DNA of 63,331 bases, taken from the IMG/VR virus record IMGVR_UViG_3300037247_000518, positions 1-63,331 of that record; one strand, given 5' to 3'. The notes under the pieces were generated by a model. It made no database searches and was not told where the DNA came from. It worked only from the letters and a program-made list of their open reading frames with translations. Position 1 is the first letter of the stretch; every line of letters begins with the position of its first letter. A program made the translations under genes and the position numbers. The stretch is from a virus (taxonomy: Duplodnaviria; Caudoviricetes). Positions 881-35,432 of the stretch are shown here, one piece after another.

Positions 881-1112
881 TGTCAGAGCACATCGGAAGA
901 AAGTTGCCGCCGCACGGAGGAGCGGTGACCTAAAACCTTCTCCAGAATGTCATGCCTGCTTCATGCTTCAGTGCATCCGATGTGCGCGTTTGGATAATGG
1001 AGATGGCTCAAAGCGGTACAAGGGTAAGACGGATTGCAGTCATTGCCCCGAGCACTGCCCAAACAAGCGAGCTAGGCTGCCTATTGTAGAAGGCATCGAT
1101 AAAGTACCGTGA
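867..1112 (+). CDS. Cys-rich zinc-finger protein
   Basis: CHAC, CIRC, CSHC-EHC; overlaps neighbours. Confidence 0.55.
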   Translation: MTAASVRAHRKKVAAARRSGDLKPSPECHACFMLQCIRCARLDNGDGSKRYKGKTDCSHCPEHCPNKRARLPIVEGIDKVP

Positions 1113-2131
1113 GAAAGCTCCCATCCCCACCTATCCCTGATAAGCGTCTGGTCGTCTTCGCCGGTACGCTCCCCGGAGCACGCGGCAAAGCTCTACGTAA
1201 CAGGAAAGCTGAAGCGATCATGGTATCATTTGAAGCTATCCGCACTGGAGGCTGGTGGGAGCGTGAACGTGAGATGTACGATAAGTGGCCGCACTATCGC
1301 TACCTTGATAGTGGTGTCTTCACGCTCATGCGGCAGGCTGGTGTATCGAGAGTTAGCGCAAATACTCAGCCTAAGAAGCAGAGAGAGTCTACGCTTAGAA
1401 AGCGTATGCCAGTCAAGATTCTCAAACAAGAACGCCGTGTCGTTGTCGTACCACAGGCCATGATCCATGAGCGCTTTACCGCGTATCGCGACTACCTGAA
1501 AGAGCATCTTGATGAATGGGACTTCGCGCTCAATTTCGATATCGATCAGTTGAATATCGAACGTGAGGACGGTATGATCATATCAGGCCTGACCGTCGCC
1601 GAGCGCATGACTGCGCAGCTCTACGAGATATGCGGGCCAAAGCTGATCGTCGTCTGGCACCCCGCGAAGATGTCGTGGGATTATTGGAAGGGTCTAGTTG
1701 CCAGCTATGATTACCTCGCGATAGGGAGCGACGCGAAGCTCAGGAGTCGCATTATCAAGTACGCGTGTGACTACGCGCACACACAGGGTAAGCTCGTACA
1801 CGGCCTGGCGGTCGGCACGAAACTCCTCGATCGCATCCCATTCGACACCGCAGACTGTTCGACCTGGATCAGCGGTATTGTCTATGGAATCTTCGCCGGT
1901 ATTAATTATGGGCTGCGATACAAGAAGAACACGTGGGACGCTCGCCATGCGTGGCTTGAGGAATTCACCCGCGGCATCGGCTTAGACCCGGCTGTGCTGA
2001 AGACGAAAGACACGACTGGGCCGAATGCGGTTGCGAAGTTTGAAATTTGTGTCGCCTTATTCCAGCACAAACAAGCACTGCTGCGGGATATCTCAGTACC
2101 ACATGAGCCGGTGAGGTTGCCGATTAGTTAG
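1109..2131 (+). CDS. DpdA/TGT-like DNA guanine transglycosylase
   Basis: TGT-barrel-like motifs YLDSGVFT, NFDID, VVWHP, YLAIG, VHGLA, FDTADCSTW; queC/D/E/folE in same genome. Confidence 0.7.
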   Translation: MRKLPSPPIPDKRLVVFAGTLPGARGKALRNRKAEAIMVSFEAIRTGGWWEREREMYDKWPHYRYLDSGVFTLMRQAGVSRVSANTQPKKQRESTLRKRMPVKILKQERRVVVVPQAMIHERFTAYRDYLKEHLDEWDFALNFDIDQLNIEREDGMIISGLTVAERMTAQLYEICGPKLIVVWHPAKMSWDYWKGLVASYDYLAIGSDAKLRSRIIKYACDYAHTQGKLVHGLAVGTKLLDRIPFDTADCSTWISGIVYGIFAGINYGLRYKKNTWDARHAWLEEFTRGIGLDPAVLKTKDTTGPNAVAKFEICVALFQHKQALLRDISVPHEPVRLPIS

Positions 2132-5798: not shown

Positions 5799-6010
5799 GC
5801 ATCTTCGCCTCTGAGTTTGAGGCGGATTTTAAGGCGATGATATCGTCTGTCAATCTCGTCACAGATGCCTTAACTGAGCTTGCCGATAGCGCGTGTAGGG
5901 CTAGTGACGAAATCAGAGAGGCCGTCGAAGAAACGGAAGGAGATTGGGCAGACAAGTGGGCCTCCCACTATCGAGCCTATATAGAGCGTACAGAGTATGA
6001 TGATCTTTGA
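5795..6010 (+). CDS. Hypothetical acidic protein
   Basis: GTGA overlap with upstream gene. Confidence 0.5.
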   Translation: MSIFASEFEADFKAMISSVNLVTDALTELADSACRASDEIREAVEETEGDWADKWASHYRAYIERTEYDDL

Positions 6011-8465
6011 TCCTAGCTGCACTCGCTGTATCTTGCATAGCGCGGCGGAAAGCGTCTGCATCCCTGCCTCTGGTCCTGACGACGCCAAGATTCTGTTCTA
6101 CGGAGAAGGCCCAGGCGGGGAAGAAGACAAGGAGAACGAGCCGTTCATAGGGCCAGCAGGCCAGGAGCTTGATGTACTTCTAGGAGAAGCCGGACTCTCA
6201 CGAAAGCGTGTGCGAGTCTCTAACACCGTCCGCTGCCGCCCGCCTGGTAATAGAGACCCGAGTGAAGACGAGCGCGCCGCGTGTATGCTCTATACTGTCC
6301 GCGAGATCGAGGCAGTGAAGCCGAAAATCATAATCGCTCTGGGTGTCTCTGCTCTCAAAGCACTTACGGGCATTAAGAAGATTGGCGATAGCCGAGGTAA
6401 ACTTCTTTCGCTGCTTCCACAGTATCGCTCGGATGTGCCGGTCATCGCCACATACCACCCTGCCGCGTATCTTCACAACCCAGGTATGCGTGGTGCGTAC
6501 TCGAAATCTATCATCGAAGACATGCGTCTCGCGCAAAAGGTGGTATCTGGCTCGGTCATGCGGGCGAAGATTGTCACGTCTCTGAACAAGGGTGCCGTTA
6601 TCAGACGAACGCTAAAGCGCCTCGCCAAGTGCGACGTGCTCGGCTGCGACCTGGAGTGGGAGGTTCTGCCGTCGAAGAAGAAGGACCCTCTTGGCATGTG
6701 GCCGTGGTCTGCACGTAGAGGTAAGCGTCCGCGTCCTGTGTCTATCGCCATCGCAGGCCGCGTAGACGACAAGATCCTCGCTCTGTCTGTGCCATTCACG
6801 AGCGAGTATGCGGACGACGTGCGCCAGATCATCCGTAGAGTGCCTACCATCTACCACAATGCGATGGCCGACTTGATCTGGCTATATCATCTGGGCTGGA
6901 AAGTGAAGCTCGATAGCTGTACGTTCATCCTAGCCTCGCTCTTGAAGATCGACAGTTCACTGTCACTAAAAGTCCTCGCGCCCATGCTGACAGACATGCC
7001 AGTAGGATGGGAGCGTGATGATTCTGGTATGGGCATCATGCCGGTTTCGAGAGACGAGTGGCGCAGGAAGTTAAAGTATGGTGGCTATGATGCCATCGCG
7101 ACATTCCTACTCAAGCCTAAGCTGCTTGAGCTGGTACACGAGCAGAAGCGAGACGATGTGCTCCCGCTCTATCATCACGTGTTGCTTCCTGCAACTGAGA
7201 TTCTTGCGAGGACAGCTCTGAGCGGTACACCCATAGATCAGCCGCTCTTGAAGTCTATACGGACGAAGGTCTTGCGTAGGGTTAGTGTTCTCACTGAGAA
7301 GATAGGCGATGAATTAGAATTGCCTGCTGATTATGAAGCGATTATCAGTAGCGACATGAAACTCGCTCCCTATCTTGAACGCGTTGGTGTGGACCTACCG
7401 AGGACAAGGAAGACCGATCGGCCTAGCGTCACGAACGATGTTCTGCTCAAGAACAAGAAGGCGCATACGGTCATTCCGCCTATCATCACACGTAGACAGT
7501 TGACTAAGCAAGAATCTGGCTACTGGCGGCCCTGGACGTGGCTCCTGGAGACACAGCGCGACAAACGGCTCCATACTATCTACCGGCTTTCGGTGGCCTC
7601 TACCGGGCGCTCGTCTACGGAGGGTGAAATAGGGTATACGTTCCAACAGTTTCTCAGAGGTAAAAAGTTTCGCCGCCTCGTTCAGGCTCGTAAGGGCTGG
7701 GAAATTCTCTCTGTTGACCAATCGCAGATCGAACTCAGGATCGTCGCCTGGCTCGCGCAAGAACGGCGCATGCTAGAATTCTTCCGGGATGATAAAGACC
7801 TGCATACTGCGATAGCGGGGTGGATGAAAGCCCTGGAAGCAGGGTGGACTATTAAGAAGTACATCAGGCACATGGAGCAGTGGACAGGGGATGTCACAAG
7901 GGCAGAACGCACCGGAGCAAAGCCCATCAACTTCGGCTTACTTTTCGGTGGCGGGCCATCTGTTGTTCAGAAGACCGCGCGCAAAGACTATGGGATTATT
8001 CTTAGTGATGAGCAGTCGGAAGTAGCCTACGATGCATATCACATCTTCTACCCTGACGTACGGCCCTGGCAGGAGACATTCTGGCGTGATGTCAAGCGCG
8101 GATATGGGGAGACATCGCTGGGTCGCAGGCGTAGTGTCAGAGAGGACGAAGAGGGGCCGGATGGCGTGTGGCGTAAGTACATCAACCTCGATGTGCAGGC
8201 TACGGCGTCTGATCTTTCATTGTTTTGCATGGACTACACATGGGAATTACTGAGGAAGGAGTTTGGTAGGCATCTCAGGAGTCTAGCCGAGAATATAGGG
8301 TTCTTCCACGACGCGACTTTGATCCACCTTGATCGCGAGGTCAGGAGTGAAGTCGGGGCCATTGTGAGAGAGTCGTGGGAGCACCCTCCACTAGACCGTA
8401 TAGGTCTCGAAATGGACGTGCCGCTGAAAGCTGATATCAAGATCAGAGAGCGTTGGACTACTTGA
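5997..8465 (+). CDS. Family A DNA polymerase with N-terminal family-4 uracil-DNA glycosylase domain and 3'-5' exonuclease
   Basis: UDG: CxxC, GEGPG, CRPPGNRDP, TYHP; exonuclease: DLE, HNAMAD, YGGYD; polymerase: DQSQIELR, RTGAKPINFG, HDA. Confidence 0.93.
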   Translation: MMIFDPSCTRCILHSAAESVCIPASGPDDAKILFYGEGPGGEEDKENEPFIGPAGQELDVLLGEAGLSRKRVRVSNTVRCRPPGNRDPSEDERAACMLYTVREIEAVKPKIIIALGVSALKALTGIKKIGDSRGKLLSLLPQYRSDVPVIATYHPAAYLHNPGMRGAYSKSIIEDMRLAQKVVSGSVMRAKIVTSLNKGAVIRRTLKRLAKCDVLGCDLEWEVLPSKKKDPLGMWPWSARRGKRPRPVSIAIAGRVDDKILALSVPFTSEYADDVRQIIRRVPTIYHNAMADLIWLYHLGWKVKLDSCTFILASLLKIDSSLSLKVLAPMLTDMPVGWERDDSGMGIMPVSRDEWRRKLKYGGYDAIATFLLKPKLLELVHEQKRDDVLPLYHHVLLPATEILARTALSGTPIDQPLLKSIRTKVLRRVSVLTEKIGDELELPADYEAIISSDMKLAPYLERVGVDLPRTRKTDRPSVTNDVLLKNKKAHTVIPPIITRRQLTKQESGYWRPWTWLLETQRDKRLHTIYRLSVASTGRSSTEGEIGYTFQQFLRGKKFRRLVQARKGWEILSVDQSQIELRIVAWLAQERRMLEFFRDDKDLHTAIAGWMKALEAGWTIKKYIRHMEQWTGDVTRAERTGAKPINFGLLFGGGPSVVQKTARKDYGIILSDEQSEVAYDAYHIFYPDVRPWQETFWRDVKRGYGETSLGRRRSVREDEEGPDGVWRKYINLDVQATASDLSLFCMDYTWELLRKEFGRHLRSLAENIGFFHDATLIHLDREVRSEVGAIVRESWEHPPLDRIGLEMDVPLKADIKIRERWTT

Positions 8466-15807: not shown

Positions 15808-16347
15808 ATGCGTAATAAGAGTGTCACCGTCACCATAGAAGGTATCCAGAATAGCAGGAGAACATACGCCACAAAAGCGGTGTTAACGCACCTCCTAGAG
15901 AGGGACGGGCTTCTATGCCAGCTTTGTCAAAAGTCTCTTGGAGAGGAAGACCTTAGTATTGATCACATCATGCCACAGGGTGTAGGAGGGAGGCACACGC
16001 TAGATAACTTCCAACTAGCTCATGGGCGATGCAATAAGAGTAAGGGTAGAGGCTCACATGCAAACTTGTTATTCAAAGCAGGCATCATTCCAGTAGGCAT
16101 AGCTTCTACAAGCGCGGAGTATCGGATACTATATGCGGAGGCACGAGATGCTATAGAGACTCGTTGGTGGAGGAAGTGGGGTAGTAGCTTGGTTGGGTCT
16201 GGGAGGCGATACTCGATATCAGAATGGAAATACATTGAGGACGACGTGTACGCGAAAGTCTGGAAGCTGCGTGTAAGGAAAGGAGAAGAGGCGGCGCTGG
16301 CGTACGATCCAAAGCGATCAGAGTTCAGCAGAAGGAGTACAGTATGA
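15808..16347 (+). CDS. HNH endonuclease
   Basis: RDGLLCQLC...IDHIMP...GG...NFQLAHGRCN. Confidence 0.88.
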   Translation: MRNKSVTVTIEGIQNSRRTYATKAVLTHLLERDGLLCQLCQKSLGEEDLSIDHIMPQGVGGRHTLDNFQLAHGRCNKSKGRGSHANLLFKAGIIPVGIASTSAEYRILYAEARDAIETRWWRKWGSSLVGSGRRYSISEWKYIEDDVYAKVWKLRVRKGEEAALAYDPKRSEFSRRSTV

Positions 16348-16742
16348 AAATAGGGAAAACATATTACTTCGAGGCAGCCCATAGCCTGCCGGGACATAAC
16401 GGTAAATGTAGAAATCTTCATGGACACAGTTACCGTCTCGATGTTGAATTAGAAGGTATCCCGATACTATATCTACATTGCTCCGATGATGGGATGATTC
16501 TTGACTTCGATGATCTCGATAGGGCCGTCGAACGAATCATTGATGGGCACCTAGACCATAGAAATCTAAACGCTTCGTTACCTGAGTCTGAGGTCCGTCG
16601 AACAACTGCCGAACTGATTTGTGGATGGGTCTCAAGACGTATCGATCAGGAGCTAGCCGCAGTGAGGACTGGGCGTGACTTCCGTCTCTCTCGTGTCCGT
16701 CTCTGGGAGACAGTGAAGTCCTGGGCTGAGTGGACACCGTGA
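16344..16742 (+). CDS. queD: 6-carboxy-5,6,7,8-tetrahydropterin synthase
   Basis: FEAAH, CRNLHGHSY, DF, LDH..LN, WET. Confidence 0.92.
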   Translation: MKIGKTYYFEAAHSLPGHNGKCRNLHGHSYRLDVELEGIPILYLHCSDDGMILDFDDLDRAVERIIDGHLDHRNLNASLPESEVRRTTAELICGWVSRRIDQELAAVRTGRDFRLSRVRLWETVKSWAEWTP

Positions 16743-17134
16743 CTAGTCCAGAGCGTCGTATCCTGCCTGATGTTCGCAAGAGCATCACGCACAAGACGGT
16801 GATCCAGGATCGTGCGATGGGCAACATCTCGCTATTCATCACAGCGGGTATGTATGATGACGAGGCTCTCGGCGAAGTCTGGATCAACATCGGCAAACAG
16901 GGGACGACGTTACGCGGATTGACTGATACGATAGCGATTGAGCTGTCCTTGCTTCTTCAGTATGGAGTCCCACTCGAAGCCATCGTCGAGCAGTTTCGTG
17001 GGCATCGCTACGAGCCACTTGGAACGACGGCGAACCCCCACATCCCAAACTGTGTGTCTATCATCGATTACGTGGTACAATGGCTAGAGTGGGCGTTCAT
17101 CACCGAGAGACAGAAGGAGGATCCTGATGCCTGA
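16730..17134 (+). CDS. Stand-alone TSCPD domain (class II ribonucleotide reductase C-terminal-like)
   Basis: GEVWINIGKQGTTLRG, SLLLQYGVPLE, SIIDY. Confidence 0.75.
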   Translation: MDTVTSPERRILPDVRKSITHKTVIQDRAMGNISLFITAGMYDDEALGEVWINIGKQGTTLRGLTDTIAIELSLLLQYGVPLEAIVEQFRGHRYEPLGTTANPHIPNCVSIIDYVVQWLEWAFITERQKEDPDA

Positions 17135-17417
17135 TATTTATATCAATTTGACACATCAGCAATACAAAGAGGTCGAGCGACAAATGCGTGCGTTCGAGGA
17201 GACGACGCACGGCGAGGGCACAGCCTACTATCATAAGTCGTTCGCTATGGACGTGGGAGGCATCCGATTCGAGTTCCACGGCCCCCCCGTGAAAGCAAGA
17301 CGGGGTGCGCTCGTTCTCGGTGATCCGCTGTGCAAAGTTATGCAAGGGAGCGATCCCACTATACTATGCGATAAGCCAGAGGGGCATCCTGGAGAACACT
17401 CTCGGGCAGGCAAATGA
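17127..17417 (+). CDS. Hypothetical protein with C-terminal C-C-H-H motif
   Basis: CDKPEGHPGEH; coupled to neighbours. Confidence 0.5.
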   Translation: MPDIYINLTHQQYKEVERQMRAFEETTHGEGTAYYHKSFAMDVGGIRFEFHGPPVKARRGALVLGDPLCKVMQGSDPTILCDKPEGHPGEHSRAGK

Positions 17418-18184
17418 TCGAAGTAAGCGAGATGTACGTAGCACCACAGGGCGAGGGGCCGAATATGGGTCGCCTGTCGCTCTTTGTCAGGCTGCGTCGC
17501 TGTACGCTGCGTTGTGTCTGGTGCGATACGAAGCAGACATGGGACAAGGGCGATCCAGATTACGAGAAGTATGAGACCTACGAGCCACACCAGCTTGCCA
17601 GCGCAATGCTAAAGAAGGGTCAGCCCTTTGGCAGACTTTCTTCGCTCGATGTCCAAGCCATTGTGCTGACGGGAGGCGAGCCGCTGATGTGGCAAGAGGA
17701 GATGGTCGAGGCATTGATTTCGTATCGTAGCACTCACGGTATCCCAGTCGAAGTCGAGACTTCTGGGACTATCGTGCCGAACACGGACATGCTCATGAAC
17801 TGTAGCTTCACCGTCTCGCACAAGCTAGCCTCTTCGCATAACGAGGGCATCCTGAGAGATTACCTGTGGAATGAGAAGGTTGTGCAGCGCATCATAGCGC
17901 ACAGCGGGCAATCTCTGCGCAATGTGAACTTCAAGCCTGTCGTAGACCCTGTTCAAGATGTCGTGGAGGTTGCGTCATACCTGAATTGGCTTAACAACAT
18001 ATCTGACCGCCTTGGAATTCCTTGGAGTTTCATGCGGGAGCACATCTATCTTATGCCACAAGGAACAAGTGCTCTTGAGCTGAGCGCCAACCAGGCGCCT
18101 ATTATTGAGATGGCGCAGGCTTACGGAGTGCGGTGTACTACGCGTATGCACATCATCGCATACGGAGACGAGAGGGGAAGATAA
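17414..18184 (+). CDS. queE: 7-carboxy-7-deazaguanine synthase (radical SAM)
   Basis: QGEG, FVRL, CTLRCVWCDT, LTGGEP, VETSG, YLMPQ. Confidence 0.92.
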   Translation: MIEVSEMYVAPQGEGPNMGRLSLFVRLRRCTLRCVWCDTKQTWDKGDPDYEKYETYEPHQLASAMLKKGQPFGRLSSLDVQAIVLTGGEPLMWQEEMVEALISYRSTHGIPVEVETSGTIVPNTDMLMNCSFTVSHKLASSHNEGILRDYLWNEKVVQRIIAHSGQSLRNVNFKPVVDPVQDVVEVASYLNWLNNISDRLGIPWSFMREHIYLMPQGTSALELSANQAPIIEMAQAYGVRCTTRMHIIAYGDERGR

Positions 18185-19146
18185 TGCAGATCAGTATGGG
18201 CGCCGCAGCAAGCCTGGCAGAGAGCGTGTCCGATCTCCTGCAAGACGGCCTTGGACGCCTTAGTATGCGTGGGCCTACAGCGTTTGCTGGCATACCGCGC
18301 GGCGGCATACCAGCAGCCATGATGGTAGCGAGGGCCTGGGCTGGTCTTGGGGGTAACTCTGAGATTCCCGTGTTTAGCAGTGACGATGTGCCCGAATCGT
18401 TCCGCGAGCGTATCGTCCTCGTTGACGACATACGAGTCACTGGTAATACTCTGGCTAGAGCAAAGGCTCTATTTGCCCCGAATGTTATATCCCAAGTCGT
18501 ACTGGTGCATAAGGGATTAGCTTCTGATGTTCTATCTGGGATGGAGGTGCCAGCAAATGAATGGGTGACATTTCCTTGGGAGACTCGTGAGAATGACGGT
18601 AAGCCAGAGGACGCTGTCTCCAGGCTCATCGAGTATCTAGGTGACGACCCAACTCGGGACGAGCTACTTGAGACGCCTGCCAGGGTGCTGCGCTTCTACG
18701 ACGAGCTGCGCGCCGCCTCGGAGCAGGAGATAGTCTCTGCGACCTTTAAGTCTACGACAAAAGACCTCGTAGTAGTCTCCGGCATCCCGTTCGCTTCGCT
18801 CTGTGAACACCACATGCTCCCCTTCTTCGGAGAAGCGGCAATCGGATATATACCGAACGGAAGTATCCTTGGTTTGTCCAAGCCCGCTCGTGCTGTCCAG
18901 CAAGCAGCGGCGGCGCTGACAGTACAGGAGCACTTGACGGCGCAAGTCGCTGAGCAGATTAAGGAGTGGACAGGTTCGGGCGCTGTCGCTGTCTTCACAA
19001 CCGCTGTGCATTCCTGCATGGTGATACGCGGTGTCAAAGCCATAGGCTCCAGGACATCGGCGTCGGCAATGCTTGGCAGCTTCCGCACATCTCCTGAACT
19101 ACGTGCCGAATTCTTTGCGGTCGTTGAGGGGGCGAGCAGGCTATGA
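18184..19146 (+). CDS. folE: Fusion of a Gpt-like purine phosphoribosyltransferase and GTP cyclohydrolase I
   Basis: N-terminal GIPRGG, VLVDDIRVTGNT, WVTFPWE; C-terminal ETPARV, SLCEHH, GLSK, VQE, HSCMVIRG; TAATG coupling to queE. Confidence 0.9.
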   Translation: MQISMGAAASLAESVSDLLQDGLGRLSMRGPTAFAGIPRGGIPAAMMVARAWAGLGGNSEIPVFSSDDVPESFRERIVLVDDIRVTGNTLARAKALFAPNVISQVVLVHKGLASDVLSGMEVPANEWVTFPWETRENDGKPEDAVSRLIEYLGDDPTRDELLETPARVLRFYDELRAASEQEIVSATFKSTTKDLVVVSGIPFASLCEHHMLPFFGEAAIGYIPNGSILGLSKPARAVQQAAAALTVQEHLTAQVAEQIKEWTGSGAVAVFTTAVHSCMVIRGVKAIGSRTSASAMLGSFRTSPELRAEFFAVVEGASRL

Positions 19147-19954: not shown

Positions 19955-20367
19955 CATCGAACCGAGTGAAGACGATCAAGCGGCTGAGGCGTCTGGCGAA
20001 GACAATGACGCAGGCACAAGCTGCTGAGCGCCTCAATGTCCACCGTCAGTGGGTGCATGTGCTGGCGCACGACTACGGTATCAGGTTCCGGGGCCAGCCA
20101 AAGGCGCGGCCGCTCAGGCGCTGTGATACGTGCGCGTTCAAACTCTGCGATGCTCCCAGATGTCTACGCTGTAAGTGGACGCCCAAGAGGATCAAACGTC
20201 TTCGGGAGCGCTATGGGCTCTCGCAGATCAACATGTCTGTTCATGTCTTAAGGATGAATGTCTTCGCATGTCAGAGATGGGAGACTGGGCGAGCCCTCCC
20301 CGCTCCGAGATCGCTAAGGCTGCTTGAGCGCAGCGAGAAGAAGATCAGGCGCCGTACTACGGCGTGA
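19951..20367 (+). CDS. Double helix-turn-helix regulator with central Zn ribbon
   Basis: MTQAQAAERLNVHRQWV; CDTC..CLRC; IKRLRERYGLSQ...RWETG. Confidence 0.7.
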   Translation: MTSNRVKTIKRLRRLAKTMTQAQAAERLNVHRQWVHVLAHDYGIRFRGQPKARPLRRCDTCAFKLCDAPRCLRCKWTPKRIKRLRERYGLSQINMSVHVLRMNVFACQRWETGRALPAPRSLRLLERSEKKIRRRTTA

Positions 20368-20950
20368 TGCCGTTTGCCTCTAGTGCTTCTCTCCGTCTGA
20401 TGCAGGCTTTACACTTTCCACACGACAACTCGTCTGGGTCATAACAGCTTACGGTCTTTTGCAGCATTTCCGGGTCGCCACCGAGTTCAAGATACTCGTG
20501 TACAGCCCCGGCTTTTGATAGTGCTCTTAAACTCGGCCCAAGCAGAGGCGATGAGACCCTCACCTGGTATCCCGCTGTGTGCGAGAGTAGTGCTGATATG
20601 CCGGTATGGAAGTCCGCGTCATTGTCGGCGTACATATCGTCAGCGACTGAGCACAGCGCTATCTCTGATGCGCCGTAGAGCGCTTGTGCAGCGGCGCAGA
20701 GTAGTACGTTACGCTGTGGTATGTATGCATCATCGTGCTCGATGCGGTCGAGTCTCAGCATGTTGCGTATGATGTAGAGGCCGGCGTGGAGGGCTTCTGG
20801 TTGCGCTATGTGATCCAACTCTTTGTTGCTATACCTGATATTGAGATCGAAGTAGACGGGTGTCCAGTCTGGCGATTGCCGCCGCAAGAGCCAGAGGCCT
20901 ATATACGAGTCGAGTCCTCCTGAGTACAGGATGATTTTTCTAGTGCCCAT
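20357..20950 (-). CDS. queC: 7-cyano-7-deazaguanine synthase
   Basis: LYSGGLDS, YIPQRN, TVSCY...CGKCKACIRR. Confidence 0.9.
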   Translation of the reverse strand: MGTRKIILYSGGLDSYIGLWLLRRQSPDWTPVYFDLNIRYSNKELDHIAQPEALHAGLYIIRNMLRLDRIEHDDAYIPQRNVLLCAAAQALYGASEIALCSVADDMYADNDADFHTGISALLSHTAGYQVRVSSPLLGPSLRALSKAGAVHEYLELGGDPEMLQKTVSCYDPDELSCGKCKACIRRREALEANGITP

Positions 20951-21095
20951 CGCATAAGCTCCACGGCCAATCTTTCTCAACCACGTCGCGCATTGCCTTG
21001 CCGCACAGTCCACAGTTCGCATAGGTAGTGAGATTCGCCAATATGTCTGCTAAGTCATAGAGGCCAAACCAACGCTTCACGAGTCGTCTGATCAT
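20940..21095 (-). CDS. Small Zn-binding protein (51 aa, not in ORF track)
   Basis: GGAGGAG RBS; MIRRLVKRWF...CGLC...CDGH. Confidence 0.5.
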   Translation of the reverse strand: MIRRLVKRWFGLYDLADILANLTTYANCGLCGKAMRDVVEKDWPWSLCDGH

Positions 21096-21338: not shown

Positions 21339-22178
21339 CTACTTCTTGGAGCGCTTCTTCTTCGCGGCGCCCTTCTTCGCCTTCTTCGTCGTCTTCGTCG
21401 TCTTCTTCTTGCCGGTTGTCACCTGCCAGAGCGTGCTGGACTCGCCGCGTTCGACTTCCTCGCCTTCGCGGTTGGTCAGTACGCGCTTCACAGTCCGCCG
21501 TGTGGGGAACATGGCCTCGCCGGACTTCGTCCTGGTGAGCTTGTGGTAAAGCTCGTTGATCGTGGCCCCGCTCTTGAACGTGCCGAGCGCGTTTACCAAT
21601 GCCGGAACGCGGTCTTCTACGGGGACCGGCGTGTTCCTGTCGCTGCGTCGCTTCGCTGTCTTCTTTGTCTTTGGCTTCGCCTTACTCTTTGCCTTTGGCT
21701 TTGTTTTACTCTTTGACTTTGCAGCGCGCCGCTTGCGGGGGGGAGTGGGCTCTTCGTCTTCTTCATCTTCATCTTCCTCTTCTTCGTCTTCTTCTTCTTC
21801 TTCGTCCTCTTCTTCTTCGTCCTCCCCCTCTTCCTCCCCCTCTTCCTCTTCTTCGTCTTCGTCGTCTAGTTCGCTGTCGTCTAACTCCTCTTCCTCTTTC
21901 TTCTGAACCTTCTTCTTTGGTGCCATCTTGGTTCGTCCTCCTGTTGTCTTAATGCCTGCTTCTTTTGCAATCTCTGCGAGTTCTCCTGCAAGTTCGGCAG
22001 CCCCGTCTATGTACTCATCGACGCCAACGAGGAAGTCAGCAATCTCCCGCATCGAGTACGGATTCTCGTCGTGTAACTCCCCTCCTTCCAGAATGTATCC
22101 GAGGTGTTTCCGGCTCGGGCTTGGTAAGTCATTTAGGCCTTTCAGGACCTCCGCGAAAGCGTCTAGCGTCAGTGCCAA
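21339..22178 (-). CDS. Acidic/basic histone-H1-like winged-helix protein with a second in-frame start at 21926
   Basis: Poly-D/E tract, Lys-rich tails flanking a wHTH-like core; GGAGG RBS before both starts. Confidence 0.6.
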   Translation of the reverse strand: MALTLDAFAEVLKGLNDLPSPSRKHLGYILEGGELHDENPYSMREIADFLVGVDEYIDGAAELAGELAEIAKEAGIKTTGGRTKMAPKKKVQKKEEEELDDSELDDEDEEEEEGEEEGEDEEEEDEEEEEDEEEEDEDEEDEEPTPPRKRRAAKSKSKTKPKAKSKAKPKTKKTAKRRSDRNTPVPVEDRVPALVNALGTFKSGATINELYHKLTRTKSGEAMFPTRRTVKRVLTNREGEEVERGESSTLWQVTTGKKKTTKTTKKAKKGAAKKKRSKK

Positions 22179-23713: not shown

Positions 23714-24073
23714 TCACGGTTTCACCTCCACTGGTATACCCGCAGCGATGGCGCGTTGTACCATGTCTTTCGTTCCCCTGCTCTCTGCGAGATTCAGAGT
23801 GAACGCGACGACGAGATCGGGTTTCTCTTTCGCTAGCATCGTGGCGTTCCTGATTGGCCCAGCACGTCTACCAAACTCCTTCCAGTTTGCTGGGTACTCT
23901 CGTACTTCCAGACCTCTACTCTCTGCTGTGATGCCTGCGAGCGTGTCGGCGCCCCTCGCTCCTCCATGAATGATGATGGTATGCCTCGGCAGCGAGTAGA
24001 TGTATTCCTCTATGGTATCTATCATAAGTCCGGGGTCCTCCCAGTTTCGGCTGCCGCAGATGAGGACCTTCAC
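23714..24073 (-). CDS. SLOG-superfamily (DUF2493/YspA-like) protein
   Basis: LICGSR, IIHGGARGAD, AGPIRN..ML, SRGT. Confidence 0.85.
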   Translation of the reverse strand: MKVLICGSRNWEDPGLMIDTIEEYIYSLPRHTIIIHGGARGADTLAGITAESRGLEVREYPANWKEFGRRAGPIRNATMLAKEKPDLVVAFTLNLAESRGTKDMVQRAIAAGIPVEVKP

Positions 24074-25875: not shown

Positions 25876-26814
25876 TCATAGTTCGGCCTCCTTCTTAGTA
25901 TGAATCCCTTGCTCCGATAGCTCCGAGACGATGTACCTCAAAGCAGCGTTCTCACCCATCTTCCGTGTCGTGAACAGTCCGGGTACATAGATGTCGAATT
26001 CTTCGAGAGCTTTTCCAGTTATGTCCAGCGGATAACCGTACTCGCCTCCAGCGAATACCCCTAGCCACCTTCGCATTGATCCCTTCGCGTGTTCCCATGA
26101 ACCGAATGCAAGCCGTCTGTGTGCGCTGGGATGCGCCAGCACATAGACTAAGTTCGCCAACTGTAGTGGGTCACCGAATTCTTTGAGACGCACTCGGGTC
26201 TCGATTCCGAACGTATCACCGTAGGAGAATAAATCGAATGCTGTGGAAATGGCGTCCACCTGCACCCGCTTCCCGTGCTTCTCAAGCGCATCGATGAGTG
26301 CGACGACTGCCGCTCCTCTTGTGATCATCGTTTTCTGTGGCACACCTTGAGACGCTGCGAAGTTGACACCCATCTTGAGCAGCATGGGCTCTCTCTCGAT
26401 CTCTGCGGGAACGAGCGTCATGAACTGCTCGGGTTCATCGTTGACGAACCTGCCGATGTCGAGTTGGTCGCCTACCACATCGTAATGGACTTCGGGGATA
26501 TGAAGCAGGCCGATCAGCTCCTCAGAAAGCTCGGCGCTGTATTTCTGTATCTCGTTGATACCTTCATCCCATCCATTTCTGGCGAGCTTGATGGCGTCCT
26601 CGAACGTGTCAGTGCCAGACCACTCCTTCCATGATTCGCCTCTCCCGCGCATGCCGCTCATCTGACTGGTACGTTCTTCGTCCTTCATGTCTATAGGGGT
26701 TTCCAGGAAACTAATCCAGTCCCACATACCGTCGAAGGCTTGTACTATTCCTTCACCGGATGGCTTCTCTGCGGGCGGCGCGATGGAGTGTACCTTGCTG
26801 TTACTACAAGACAT
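25876..26814 (-). CDS. vWA-like partner of the AAA+ ATPase
   Basis: NFAASQG degenerate MIDAS-like segment, GAAVVALIDALE; coupled to upstream AAA+. Confidence 0.55.
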   Translation of the reverse strand: MSCSNSKVHSIAPPAEKPSGEGIVQAFDGMWDWISFLETPIDMKDEERTSQMSGMRGRGESWKEWSGTDTFEDAIKLARNGWDEGINEIQKYSAELSEELIGLLHIPEVHYDVVGDQLDIGRFVNDEPEQFMTLVPAEIEREPMLLKMGVNFAASQGVPQKTMITRGAAVVALIDALEKHGKRVQVDAISTAFDLFSYGDTFGIETRVRLKEFGDPLQLANLVYVLAHPSAHRRLAFGSWEHAKGSMRRWLGVFAGGEYGYPLDITGKALEEFDIYVPGLFTTRKMGENAALRYIVSELSEQGIHTKKEAEL

Positions 26815-28162
26815 GGCTTGGCTCCCTCTTGTTGAGGCCCGCCAGAATCTTCTCCTTATCGTCTTTCGAGATCGGCTGCCAGATGACAGCCTGCTCGACC
26901 TCCTCGCGGTCGATCTTCTCGTCGAGCATGCGCGCACCAATCAACGCAGTCCTCATCCCGATGATCGCCCTGATCTTCTGTCTGGCTATGCTTTCGCACA
27001 AGGATTGCACGTAGGCAGTCCATTCCTTGTGCCGCTCACCGCAGATAGAATGCGCCAAGCTCCAGTCTGTGTTCCACTCTAAATAGACCCAGCGGTTGAG
27101 TGTTGCTGCGTCTAGCTGAGCCCGGCCAACGTACAGCATATCAGCACCTCTTCCAAACGTATTCATGGCGGCGACGAAGACGCTATCAGGATGCTTCTTC
27201 ACCATTCCATCAGGAAAGCCAATTGCTTCTCCTGGCTTTGCGTCTACTAGCGCATTGACGATGGTGAGGATTGCTGGGTTTGCTGCGTCCATTTCGTCTA
27301 GCTCGATGAGCCCCCCGCTCTCGCACCCCATGCGAACCAGCGACGGCACGTACTTCCCCGACCCACTCATGTAGCCAACGAGGTCGCTCTTGCTCGTCTG
27401 TGGCCCCAGCGGTTGATGATAGAAGTCCAGTCCTAGTGCTTTAGCTGCATTCCTTCCGGCGACCGTCTTGCCGCTGCCTGCGTCGCCTACCATTGCGGTA
27501 TTGATGCCTGCTGCGATCAGCTTGAGCAGCCTCGGGAAGTTTACGTGCTGTTGCGCCTTGAGCTTCCTGGTCTTCTTCTGGCCGCCCGGTAATGTTCTAG
27601 TGACCTCGATCTCGACGCGGCGGGCGTTGTCAATGCGGGCAATGGCTTTCTTGGTTTCCTCTTGCGCGGCTTCCGAAGCCTTCCGCGCGATGGTGGCCTT
27701 CTGTTCTGCTGCTGTGACCTGCCCGCGCATCTCATCCATCTGATCTTTGAACCGCTGGAAGTCCTCCTTCGAGGCTTTCGTCGGTCGTTCTGGTAGTGCG
27801 ATGTCGATGTCCTCGATGCGAGGCTTCATCGCCACTAACTTGCCGTCGCACGTTCCTGCGCCTCGGTGGCGTACCATCTTGATTGACGGCGACCACCAGA
27901 CTTCATCGCCTTCGGCGACAGGGTCTTGGCAAAGAGAGCACTTACCTGGAAATTTAGCCCGAATAGCCTGTTCCTTTTGCTCCTTCTCCTCGCCGATCTC
28001 CACCAGGTGCTGCGCGTGAAGCTCTCGGCCTTCTTCTGTGATGTTCTTGTGCGAACGCTTGACCGGGTGCCAGGTGTCGTGGTAGGAGCCATCGACGTAT
28101 CTGCTTTGCTTATGGATGTGCAGGTTACCGTCGCGTGTTGGTGTGTAGGGCACTCTCACCAT
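26804..28162 (-). CDS. CobS/CbbQ/MoxR-like AAA+ ATPase
   Basis: GDAGSGKT, LDEMDAA, AAMNTFG, YVGRAQLDAATLNRW. Confidence 0.88.
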   Translation of the reverse strand: MVRVPYTPTRDGNLHIHKQSRYVDGSYHDTWHPVKRSHKNITEEGRELHAQHLVEIGEEKEQKEQAIRAKFPGKCSLCQDPVAEGDEVWWSPSIKMVRHRGAGTCDGKLVAMKPRIEDIDIALPERPTKASKEDFQRFKDQMDEMRGQVTAAEQKATIARKASEAAQEETKKAIARIDNARRVEIEVTRTLPGGQKKTRKLKAQQHVNFPRLLKLIAAGINTAMVGDAGSGKTVAGRNAAKALGLDFYHQPLGPQTSKSDLVGYMSGSGKYVPSLVRMGCESGGLIELDEMDAANPAILTIVNALVDAKPGEAIGFPDGMVKKHPDSVFVAAMNTFGRGADMLYVGRAQLDAATLNRWVYLEWNTDWSLAHSICGERHKEWTAYVQSLCESIARQKIRAIIGMRTALIGARMLDEKIDREEVEQAVIWQPISKDDKEKILAGLNKREPSHVL

Positions 28163-34991: not shown

Positions 34992-35432
34992 CTAGCATTT
35001 GGCGATTCGGTCATACATGACGATGCTTGCTGCCGTTGCGACGTTAAGGCAGCGAGCCGCTGGGATACTCACTGTGATGGGCGCGCGCTCCAGTATCTCT
35101 TTCGGCAGGTTCCCATCTTCAGGCCCCAGGAGATAGACTGCGCTGCGCGGGTGCGCCAGATGCGGGAGTAACTTCGCGCCGCCAACTTCTACGGCAACCG
35201 GCACGCAATCAAACGGGATATGACGCCAGAACTCATCGAGGTCAGCATAGTGGAAGATAGGTAAATGGCGACAACTTTTAGTCGTGTCTGAAGTCTGATG
35301 TTTGTAGCGCCGCCCGACTGTGAAGCAGAATGCAGCCCCAAATGCTTCCGCAGTGCGCACCATCGTACCGAAGTTGACCTCAGTTTTTAGCAGCACCGCC
35401 CCGATCCCGAAATAGCCACGCGCAGGGCTCAT
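34992..35432 (-). CDS. SpoU/TrmH-family SPOUT RNA methyltransferase
   Basis: NFGTMVRTAEAFG, YLLGPEDG, CLNVATAASIVMYDR. Confidence 0.9.
   Translation of the reverse strand: MSPARGYFGIGAVLLKTEVNFGTMVRTAEAFGAAFCFTVGRRYKHQTSDTTKSCRHLPIFHYADLDEFWRHIPFDCVPVAVEVGGAKLLPHLAHPRSAVYLLGPEDGNLPKEILERAPITVSIPAARCLNVATAASIVMYDRIAKC

Follow-up and report, generated by a model that had tools for sequence, protein, structure and literature searches.

A phosphoribosyltransferase-like domain fused to GTP cyclohydrolase I in the 7-deazaguanine gene clusters of phages

The window analyzed here, which is the whole of the IMG/VR virus record IMGVR_UViG_3300037247_000518 (63,331 bases, estimated to be 87% complete, from an uncultured phage), contains a gene in which a predicted phosphoribosyltransferase (PRT) domain and a GTP cyclohydrolase I (FolE) domain share one reading frame, among genes for the synthesis of 7-deazaguanines and their insertion into DNA. 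We regard the fusion as a recurring variant of known enzymes that has so far escaped study. FolE, QueD, QueE and QueC make 7-cyano-7-deazaguanine (preQ0) from guanosine triphosphate (GTP), and this pathway, together with DpdA and the tailoring enzymes, is considered mapped; the 7-deazaguanine modification of DNA protects phages from restriction enzymes. It is proposed, with about an even chance of being right, that the fused protein is a bifunctional enzyme whose PRT half would salvage guanine in step with base exchange by DpdA. A salvage domain on the first enzyme of the pathway would suggest that phages offset the purine cost of the modification or, alternatively, that the exchange reaction is pulled forward by the removal of guanine. 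The domain is hidden in current annotation, either under the name "GTP cyclohydrolase I" or as a split-off hypothetical protein, which would make it an easy and testable addition to the pathway.

A single reading frame with two domains

The fusion gene is one uninterrupted frame of 320 codons, without a stop between the ATG at 18184 and position 19146, and its ATG shares one base with the stop codon of queE (TAATG). A sequence-only reading of the window had described a Gpt-like PRT in frame with FolE inside the 7-deazaguanine operon, with GIPRGG, VDD..TG.T, W..FPWE, CEHH and HSC as the motifs of the two halves. This description is borne out by the 320-amino-acid (aa) open reading frame (ORF) at 18184-19146 on the + strand, by the conservation of all of these motifs across the homologues, and by the neighboring genes in this phage, which also encodes a DpdA homologue. 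The stop or frameshift between the domains that the same reading had considered was searched for and is absent from the ORF; many homologues are fused alike.

The C-terminal half is predicted to be a complete, ordinary GTP cyclohydrolase I. Residues 142-314 match PF01227 over profile positions 2-178 of 179 (E=1.3e-54, 184.7 bits against a cut-off of 27), and the NCBIfam model NF006826 is matched with 181 bits, over its cut-off of 162 bits. C207, H209 and H210 (CEHH, 207-210) as well as H276 and C278 (HSC, 276-278), which we take to be the zinc and catalytic residues of FolE, are invariant in 39 aligned fused homologues. The T-fold was recovered both by Foldseek (1wm9_E, Thermus FolE, E=9e-21, template modeling score of 0.89 on the target) and by VIA-align (4uqf, Listeria FolE, Z 22.5, root-mean-square deviation (rmsd) of 1.6 over 178 residues). 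Foldseek with the full model returned FolE chains only among the matches listed, and the structural matches of the N-terminal domain given below come from VIA-align.

Residues 1-140 are, as judged by motifs and by the predicted fold, a Gpt/XPRT-like compact type I PRT domain. They contain the pyrophosphate (PPi) loop GIPRGG (37-41), the phosphoribosyl pyrophosphate (PRPP) motif VDDIRVTGNT (80-89), K110 and the C-terminal W127..FPWE133. The PRPP motif, defined as a hydrophobic strand followed by two acidic residues and (S/T)G.T, is found as VLVDDIRVTGNT at residues 78-89. In 167 unique homologous domains GIPRGG, VDD..TG.T and W..FPWE are invariant or nearly so; no variation is seen at D81, D82 and G87, and very little at T89, either in this set or in the 39 fused homologues. 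P38, R39, G40, G41, D81, D82, G87 and T89, and likewise W127, F130, P131, W132 and E133, reach at least 80% in each of the two clades described below. Position 110 is K or R in 160/167 domains and W127 is invariant; on the basis of the motif alignment, these two residues may correspond to Lys115 and Trp134 of the Escherichia coli xanthine-guanine PRT (XGPRT). In the 6-oxopurine PRTs a Lys contacts the exocyclic O6 and an aromatic residue stacks on the base.

The PRT half is only weakly detected by the sequence-profile libraries (Pfam, PHROGs and NCBIfam). The PF00156 match, confined to residues 68-98, has 21.8 bits and does not reach the gathering cut-off (26.3), with a precomputed PF00156 match present on many of the homologues; phrog_8995 matches with E=1.4e-4, and the NCBIfam equivalog for xanthine phosphoribosyltransferase (NF006613) gives 16.6-19.9 bits against a cut-off of 138. 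The best matches in a phmmer search of the PDB are purine PRTs (1vdm, E=4e-4; 4z1o, E=6e-3), in alignments reaching from the PPi loop as far as the C-terminal W..FPWE. Similarly, VIA-align of residues 1-140 of the model gives 4z1o (Sulfolobus hypoxanthine-guanine-xanthine PRT, HGXPRT) with Z 15.4 over 137 residues and an rmsd of 3.6, followed by 1vdm (Z 14.3), 6kp5 (Yersinia XGPRT, Z 14.0) and 7kl6 (Helicobacter pylori XGHPRT, Z 13.4), as well as dozens more PRTs at Z >10. The compact 6-oxopurine PRTs (E. coli/Yersinia Gpt (XGPRT), e.g., 6kp5, Pyrococcus horikoshii 1vdm, Sulfolobus GpT-2 4z1o and H. pylori 7kl6) are the best matches in both sequence and fold. At about 140-170 aa they are similar in size to the window domain, and they have in common with it the type I core, the RGG PPi loop, the acidic pair with TG.T and the C-terminal W..(F)PW(E/D). 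Unlike them, the window domain is fused to FolE, lies below the Pfam and NCBIfam cut-offs, is only 18-22% identical over the fold alignment, has Val85 instead of the Asp of their DTG/DSG, and carries a clade-specific acidic residue in loop II.

The fusion is not an assembly artefact, and the merging of two genes through assembly or a frameshift is so improbable that it hardly needs to be entertained. Both halves are present in 82 of the 120 best-listed homologues (272-345 aa), which come from many sources, the other 38 (180-199 aa) being plain FolE, in a split made with an N-domain hidden Markov model (HMM) that was partly built from those same sequences. The same two-domain layout is found in 34 cultured phage genomes, and a 320-aa protein with 90% identity is encoded on three other contigs. 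The linker GKPEDAVxRLIEY is kept among the fused homologues, and the AlphaFold model of the 320-aa protein (39 homologues as input) has a mean predicted local distance difference test score (pLDDT) of 94.5 and a predicted template modeling score of 0.82, with a confidently modeled junction and a pLDDT of 73 in its worst 10-residue block. In the single public sequencing run with this stretch, the contigs show zero insertions or deletions; as the window may itself derive from this run, the support is weak and not independent. One contig of this run departs from the window at 18175, just before the start codon, and has G>A at 18133 (region 18103-18175), which points to a related variant within that sample. 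No RNA sequencing run containing the stretch was found among the runs listed.

Distribution of the fused and stand-alone forms

The fusion is common in phages, where roughly one in ten FolE genes carries it. Among cultured phages, 403 FolE-bearing records match the protein. For 34 of these the match extends over 80% or more of its length and hence includes the N-terminal domain. These are Nipunavirus and other Queuovirinae phages of Pseudomonas (PaMx25, NP1, JG054, Quinobequin-P09), phages of Stenotrophomonas, Xanthomonas and Variovorax, Vibrio phages such as VpKK5, and the Sphingomonas phage MMDA13; all 34 are annotated merely as "GTP cyclohydrolase" or "GTP cyclohydrolase I". In IMG/VR, the domain is present in at least 51 among 586 listed stretches with FolE motifs, and a pattern scan for the N-terminal domain added 30 contigs, for a total of 81 distinct contigs, many of them near-duplicates. 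The domain is fused to FolE in 68 of the 81 and is a separate ORF (121-277 aa) in 13. Six of the separate ORFs abut FolE (three in the order PRT-FolE and three in the order FolE-PRT), one follows FolE and DpdA, two are 6-7 kb away from FolE, and four have no FolE match in the fetched stretch. The presence of the fusion in other phages and its co-occurrence with dpdA, both raised by the sequence-only reading, are confirmed in 34/403 cultured records and in 68/81 domain-bearing IMG/VR contigs, with a dpdA homologue in the fetched stretch at 54 of these 68 loci and elsewhere on the record at three more, one of them a partial match.

An exhaustive HMMER search with the N-terminal domain of the window against 1.84 billion representatives found 48 proteins at E<=1e-3, of which 21 have the fused length and 26 are 118 to 205 aa long, the last being a spurious repeat protein. 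Ten clusters of these matches were queried for names: two are called "xanthine" and one "hypoxanthine phosphoribosyltransferase", and seven have no functional name. Short stand-alone proteins related to residues 1-141 were also sought in a word-indexed search, which gave 19 candidates, none at E<=0.01, and whose sensitivity is low compared with the HMMER search, which recovered 26. The domain was found in 0 among 600 listed FolE-motif stretches of cellular species-representative genomes, and within the samples listed it is restricted to phage 7-deazaguanine clusters. Near-identical DNA was not found in cultured phages by megablast. A query for related loci with the whole protein gave five loci, none of them from the subclade of the window, and an alignment of the N-terminal domain only was needed to reach two subclade loci (L061 and L063).

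Some of the individual loci deserve mention. In PaMx25 (JQ067084.3, 5883-6813), GenBank has a 124-aa out-of-frame "hypothetical protein" over the N-terminal domain and a late-start folE, although one uninterrupted PRT-FolE frame of 297 aa, in which PRGG, DDLIDSGST and WIVFPWE are present, spans 5920-6813. The Brevundimonas phage MaInes has FolE and then, directly, a separate gene annotated as xanthine PRT. At L035 (2905-3738) the PRT domain belongs to a 277-aa ORF that follows FolE and DpdA and lacks a FolE domain of its own; the domain may have another fusion partner here. Three records of 80-208 kb (L077, L079 and L087) have a stand-alone mini-PRT, which in two of them overlaps the start of FolE; one of the three has no FolE or DpdA match within 10 kb of the mini-PRT.

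No published description of a PRT-FolE fusion was found in full-text searches of the literature, with the reservation that supplementary tables could list a longer FolE without remark; the word "phosphoribosyl" is absent from the main text of the two Hutinet papers and of the paper on phage Iggy. The term "fused" in the literature on DpdA and FolE phages was considered as a possible reference to PRT-FolE and rejected, as in the papers checked it refers to Gat-QueC.

Linkage to DpdA, FolE and QueC

Wherever a record was long enough to allow a verdict, a DpdA homologue was found. It lies within the fetched stretch at 54 of the 68 fused loci, and three further loci, with at least about 9.5 kb on both sides and no DpdA in the stretch, have a homologue elsewhere on the record (in the L061 record, just a partial frame of 146 aa where the contig ends, E=3e-5); the remaining 11 loci break off within 2.3 kb on one side. 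The fusion partner is always FolE, the entry point of GTP, and never QueC or QueE, and many of the fused loci have no QueC match in the fetched stretch. If QueC is truly absent from them, the substrate would have to be common to all such clusters, and the domain would not be tied to a particular end product. A substrate that all such clusters share and that stands where the pathway begins would fit three features: the partner is always FolE, the stand-alone forms tend to lie beside FolE, and the domain is present with or without a QueC match nearby. A plain FolE of 207 aa is encoded by phage Iggy, for which dPreQ0 has been measured.

The fusions of the Nipunavirus phages PaMx25, NP1 and Quinobequin-P09, and those of VpKK5 and MMDA13, have the same domain order as the window protein, are 34-40% identical to it, and sit, like the window gene, in a module of QueE, QueC, QueD, FolE, DpdA, sliding clamp and polymerase. 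In these fusions, unlike in the window protein, the PRPP motif is the canonical DD..D(S/T)G and loop II is shorter. They are referred to here as the Asp type. DpdA adjoins FolE in them, whereas the DpdA of the window lies 16 kb from FolE.

Loss of the aspartate of the PRPP motif

The Asp of D-S/T-G, a hallmark of the 6-oxopurine PRTs, is not kept in the window protein, in which Val85 pairs with the Asp of DTG in 1vdm and 4z1o (PDB phmmer alignment). The PRPP loop of the sequence-only reading is consequently right as to VDD..TG.T and incomplete in one respect, as the loop reads VDDIRVTGNT, with Val85 at the usual position of the Asp. In a 2023 paper on trypanosomal HGXPRTs, this Asp is called strictly conserved in the hypoxanthine-guanine(-xanthine) PRTs, HG(X)PRTs, and is described as the general acid/base acting on N7 of the purine, identified for the human and Plasmodium enzymes, with mutagenesis suggesting that any strong hydrogen-bond partner of N7 suffices (PMC10357585).

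In the 167 unique domains, the column of Val85 has D or E in 113 and another residue in 54 (V 31, A 8, T 7, C 2 and six others), and all 50 other motif-matched PRT ORFs of the loci examined (47 from IMG/VR and three from cultured phages) are of the Asp type. A tree calculated after masking of this column places the window protein among 50 sequences, 49 non-Asp and one Asp, that form a group with a support of 98 in the Shimodaira-Hasegawa-like approximate likelihood ratio test (SH-aLRT), and the trait requires seven changes over the tree, compared with a mean of 46 for shuffled labels. The tree is a quick IQ-TREE search on 133 columns with SH-aLRT support only, and many of its forks are unresolved. 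Loop II is also longer in the non-Asp clade, in which the spacing from G41 to D81 has a median of 38 residues, against 31 in the Asp clade; furthermore, aligned column 68 is acidic in 51/54 non-Asp domains and in 40/113 Asp-type domains. The subclade in which Asp is replaced by Val, Ala or Thr, along with a longer loop II bearing a near-invariant acidic residue, is well supported and new here.

In the adenine PRTs (APRT), the residue before TG in the PRPP motif is non-acidic, and the catalytic Glu is on the flexible loop II. In the non-Asp clade, which appears to mimic this layout, the acid/base would most simply be taken to have moved to loop II, and we infer that D68 on the lengthened loop II may have taken over the role of the lost Asp. 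Unlike APRT, the window domain retains, by motif alignment, the Lys/Arg typical of 6-oxopurine recognition, and the APRT folds fit it less well than those of the XGPRT type (4trb, Z 13.3, and 2dy0, Z 10.4, by VIA-align). With the acid/base moved, or with an enzyme retuned for a base that lacks N7, the non-Asp clade would be a natural experiment in PRT catalysis. Makers of nucleotide analogues could also take an interest in such small PRTs, of about 140 aa, if their base preference is altered.

Guanine salvage and alternative functions

In the proposed mechanism, the FolE half would commit GTP to the preQ0 pathway (FolE, QueD, QueE and QueC), and DpdA would exchange guanine in finished DNA for a 7-deazaguanine base. 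In two publications (PMC6884629; PMC10516641), insertion of 7-deazaguanine is described as a post-replicative base exchange by DpdA. Since DpdA is held to act in this way, one guanine would be freed for each base inserted. The PRT half would then join free guanine, derived from this release and from the breakdown of host nucleic acids, to PRPP to form guanosine monophosphate (GMP), which host kinases would return to the GTP pool used by FolE. Judging from how the tRNA-guanine transglycosylase (TGT) enzymes work, removal of guanine would also take away a competitor of preQ0 at the transglycosylase. As GMP is two steps from GTP, the fusion would more probably secure co-expression and stoichiometry than channeling. 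The fate of the guanine expelled by DpdA is not discussed in the available parts of the three key papers.

This recycling of guanine into GTP was one of two functions that the sequence-only reading had put forward, and it is the better supported one through its context, that is, the retention of the PPi loop, the acidic pair, TG.T, the Lys/Arg and the presumed stacking Trp, along with the linkage to FolE and DpdA. The domain architecture, the conservation of the PRPP and PPi site and the linkage to FolE and DpdA are observed, and it is from them that the domain is proposed to be catalytic, to use guanine and to close a salvage loop. Several points weigh against guanine salvage. Formation of GMP by any member of the family would be a prediction, and compensation by loop II would likewise be presumed from the alignment. 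We know of no guanine PRT without the catalytic Asp. The hosts normally have their own Gpt or Hpt, and the benefit to the phage is not obvious. The two kinase steps from GMP to GTP leave no direct channeling to FolE, and many 7-deazaguanine phages, among them Iggy and about 90% of the phage FolE loci, do without the domain, which is therefore dispensable. Val85 also takes the place of an Asp called strictly conserved in all HG(X)PRTs and described as their general acid/base (PMC10357585), and PRT folds that sense PRPP or nucleotides match the model as well (PyrR 1w30, Z 14.3; 5vog, bound to guanosine tetraphosphate (ppGpp), Z 14.0).

The latter matches bring up the view that the domain is non-catalytic and binds PRPP, a guanine nucleotide or ppGpp in order to regulate or organize the FolE decamer, in the manner of PurR and PyrR, which is considered rather improbable. 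The regulators fit the model about as well as the enzymes (1o57 PurR gives Z 9.8, besides the two matches just given), the domain is much smaller than the HGPRTs in aligned length, the conserved residues of the PRPP site would also be expected of a sensor, and the catalytic Asp is gone from the clade of the window. A role tethered to FolE is, in turn, at odds with the free-standing gene in 13/81 viral contigs, including the four without a FolE match in the fetched stretch, and the presumed purine-side residues K/R110 and W127 are as conserved as the PRPP side.

The second function put forward by the sequence-only reading was phosphoribosylation of a 7-deazaguanine base, giving a nucleotide for incorporation during replication. 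The incorporation part is disfavored because DpdA is always present, no phage nucleotide kinase or ribonucleotide reductase (RNR) was found in the window, and the published exchange is post-replicative, whereas the formation of a 7-deazapurine nucleotide gains some weight for this clade from the loss of the Asp that contacts N7. The N-terminal domain of the subclade would then be a 7-deazapurine PRT that joins preQ0, 7-carboxy-7-deazaguanine (CDG) or 7-amido-7-deazaguanine (ADG) to PRPP and forms a 7-deazaguanosine 5'-monophosphate, which could serve a nucleotide-level route, the buffering of the free-base pool or another purpose; this is regarded as rather improbable, and a switch of the non-Asp PRT-FolE subclade from guanine to one of these three bases as a shade more doubtful. 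The Asp that hydrogen-bonds N7 is replaced by Val, Ala, Thr or Cys, and 7-deazapurines have no N7; the change marks one clade with the rest of its active site conserved, and the retained Lys/Arg at the presumed 6-oxo position would fit 7-deazaguanine. There is also a precedent in the Streptomyces clusters for tubercidin and toyocamycin, in which the PRPP transferase TubE is specific for CDG and a corresponding action on preQ0 has been proposed for ToyH (PMC6112128), both being PF00156 enzymes encoded beside homologues of GTP cyclohydrolase I, QueD and QueE (PMC6112128; bioRxiv 10.64898/2026.04.15.718813). TubE (194 aa), which joins CDG to PRPP, and ToyH, unlike the window domain, are free-standing and belong to antibiotic clusters without enzymes for insertion into nucleic acids. 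Against such an activity, DpdA and QueC matches are present in all three records of the clade that could be inspected (the window, L061 and L063, with both matches partial and at contig ends in the record of L061), and the free base is needed for the exchange and would be drained by this PRT. Additionally, no nucleotide kinase or RNR was found among the window proteins scanned, a lone TSCPD domain being the only RNR-like piece; the partner is FolE and not the enzymes that make the deazapurine base, and the near-invariant acidic residue of loop II is a simpler account of the lost Asp. If the substrate has been switched, these phages would form 7-deazaguanosine nucleotides alongside the DpdA exchange. 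The 7-deazaguanine metabolism of phages would then have a second branch at the nucleotide level, and a TubE-like activity would for the first time be known from outside antibiotic biosynthesis.

Genome context and other features of the window

The coordinates of the features are collected in Table 1. The early/replication region on the + strand encodes a DpdA-like protein, a sliding clamp, a helicase, a methyltransferase and a family A DNA polymerase, as well as an exonuclease, a Sak4-like annealing protein, a single-stranded DNA-binding protein and a prim-pol, and it is followed by HNH, QueD, a TSCPD-domain protein, a 96-aa ORF, QueE and PRT-FolE. The QueC homologue is 1.2 kb beyond the PRT-FolE gene on the opposite strand.

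Table 1. Coordinates of the PRT-FolE gene, its parts and the related genes in the window.
Feature	Position	Strand	Basis
PRT-FolE fusion gene	18184..19146	+	single ORF, 320 aa + stop; fused homologues at 33-90% identity
Shine-Dalgarno-like GAGAGGGGAAG	18170..18180	+	read from sequence; 4-14 nucleotides before ATG
Compact type I PRT domain (predicted), residues 1-140	18184..18603	+	PDB phmmer, VIA-align, motifs
Extended loop II, about residues 54-76, with acidic D68	18343..18411	+	spacing and column counts
Val85 codon, site of the catalytic PRPP-motif Asp in 6-oxopurine PRTs	18436..18438	+	alignment
GTP cyclohydrolase I (FolE) domain, residues 142-314	18607..19125	+	PF01227, NF006826, Foldseek, VIA-align
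Divergent DpdA (DNA guanine transglycosylase homologue)	1109..2131	+	phrog_887 E=1.2e-10; hhalign
QueD (6-carboxytetrahydropterin (CPH4) synthase / PTPS family)	16344..16742	+	PF01242 E=1.4e-32
QueE	17414..18184	+	PF04055, PF13353; QueE NCBIfam models are the best matches, yet under their cut-offs
QueC homologue (SGGLDS PP-loop, C-terminal CxxCxxC)	20357..21022	-	PF06508 E=4e-20; phrog_1550 E=1e-23

The DpdA of the window is divergent. A profile of its family (four members) aligned by hhalign with 18 phage DpdAs gives a probability of 99.9% and E=2e-33 over 229 columns, and the motifs LDSG, VxH, HGxG and DxSxW are common to both. No match to PF01702 (TGT) was obtained at E<=0.001 with the record or the protein, and phmmer against the PDB gave nothing meaningful for this candidate. 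Its gene is directly upstream of the sliding clamp gene, as in PaMx25, VpKK5 and Iggy (the Queuovirinae arrangement). The QueC homologue is matched by the Pfam and NCBIfam QueC models in its C-terminal half only (residues 95-217), far under the equivalog cut-offs, and retains SGGLDS and CxxCxxC; its product may be preQ0 or ADG.

Between QueD and QueE lies a free-standing 134-aa TSCPD-domain protein (16730-17134, + strand) that resembles residues 739-858 of the B12-dependent RNR (NF005122, E=5e-35; PF12637); a homologue was present in 0/90 other loci examined, and scanning of the window proteins turned up no RNR catalytic domain. On the opposite strand, a 119-aa protein of the YspA/cpYpsA-related SLOG family (23714-24073; PF10686, E=5e-17; phrog_289) is encoded; SLOG/LOG-type proteins bind or cleave nucleotides, and a link of this protein to purine handling is conceivable. 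The same strand also encodes a 279-aa protein (21339-22178) with a long Glu/Asp run (at about residues 95-145) and then a Lys-rich tail, which has weak matches only, to PHROGs without informative annotation. Also on this strand are a CobS/MoxR-like AAA_5 ATPase (26804-28162; phrog_249, "porphyrin biosynthesis") and beside it a DUF7192 protein (25876-26940; phrog_1909), a pair that is common in phages, as well as a homologue of the SpoU-family RNA 2'-O-methyltransferases (34992-35432; PF00588, E=1e-17).

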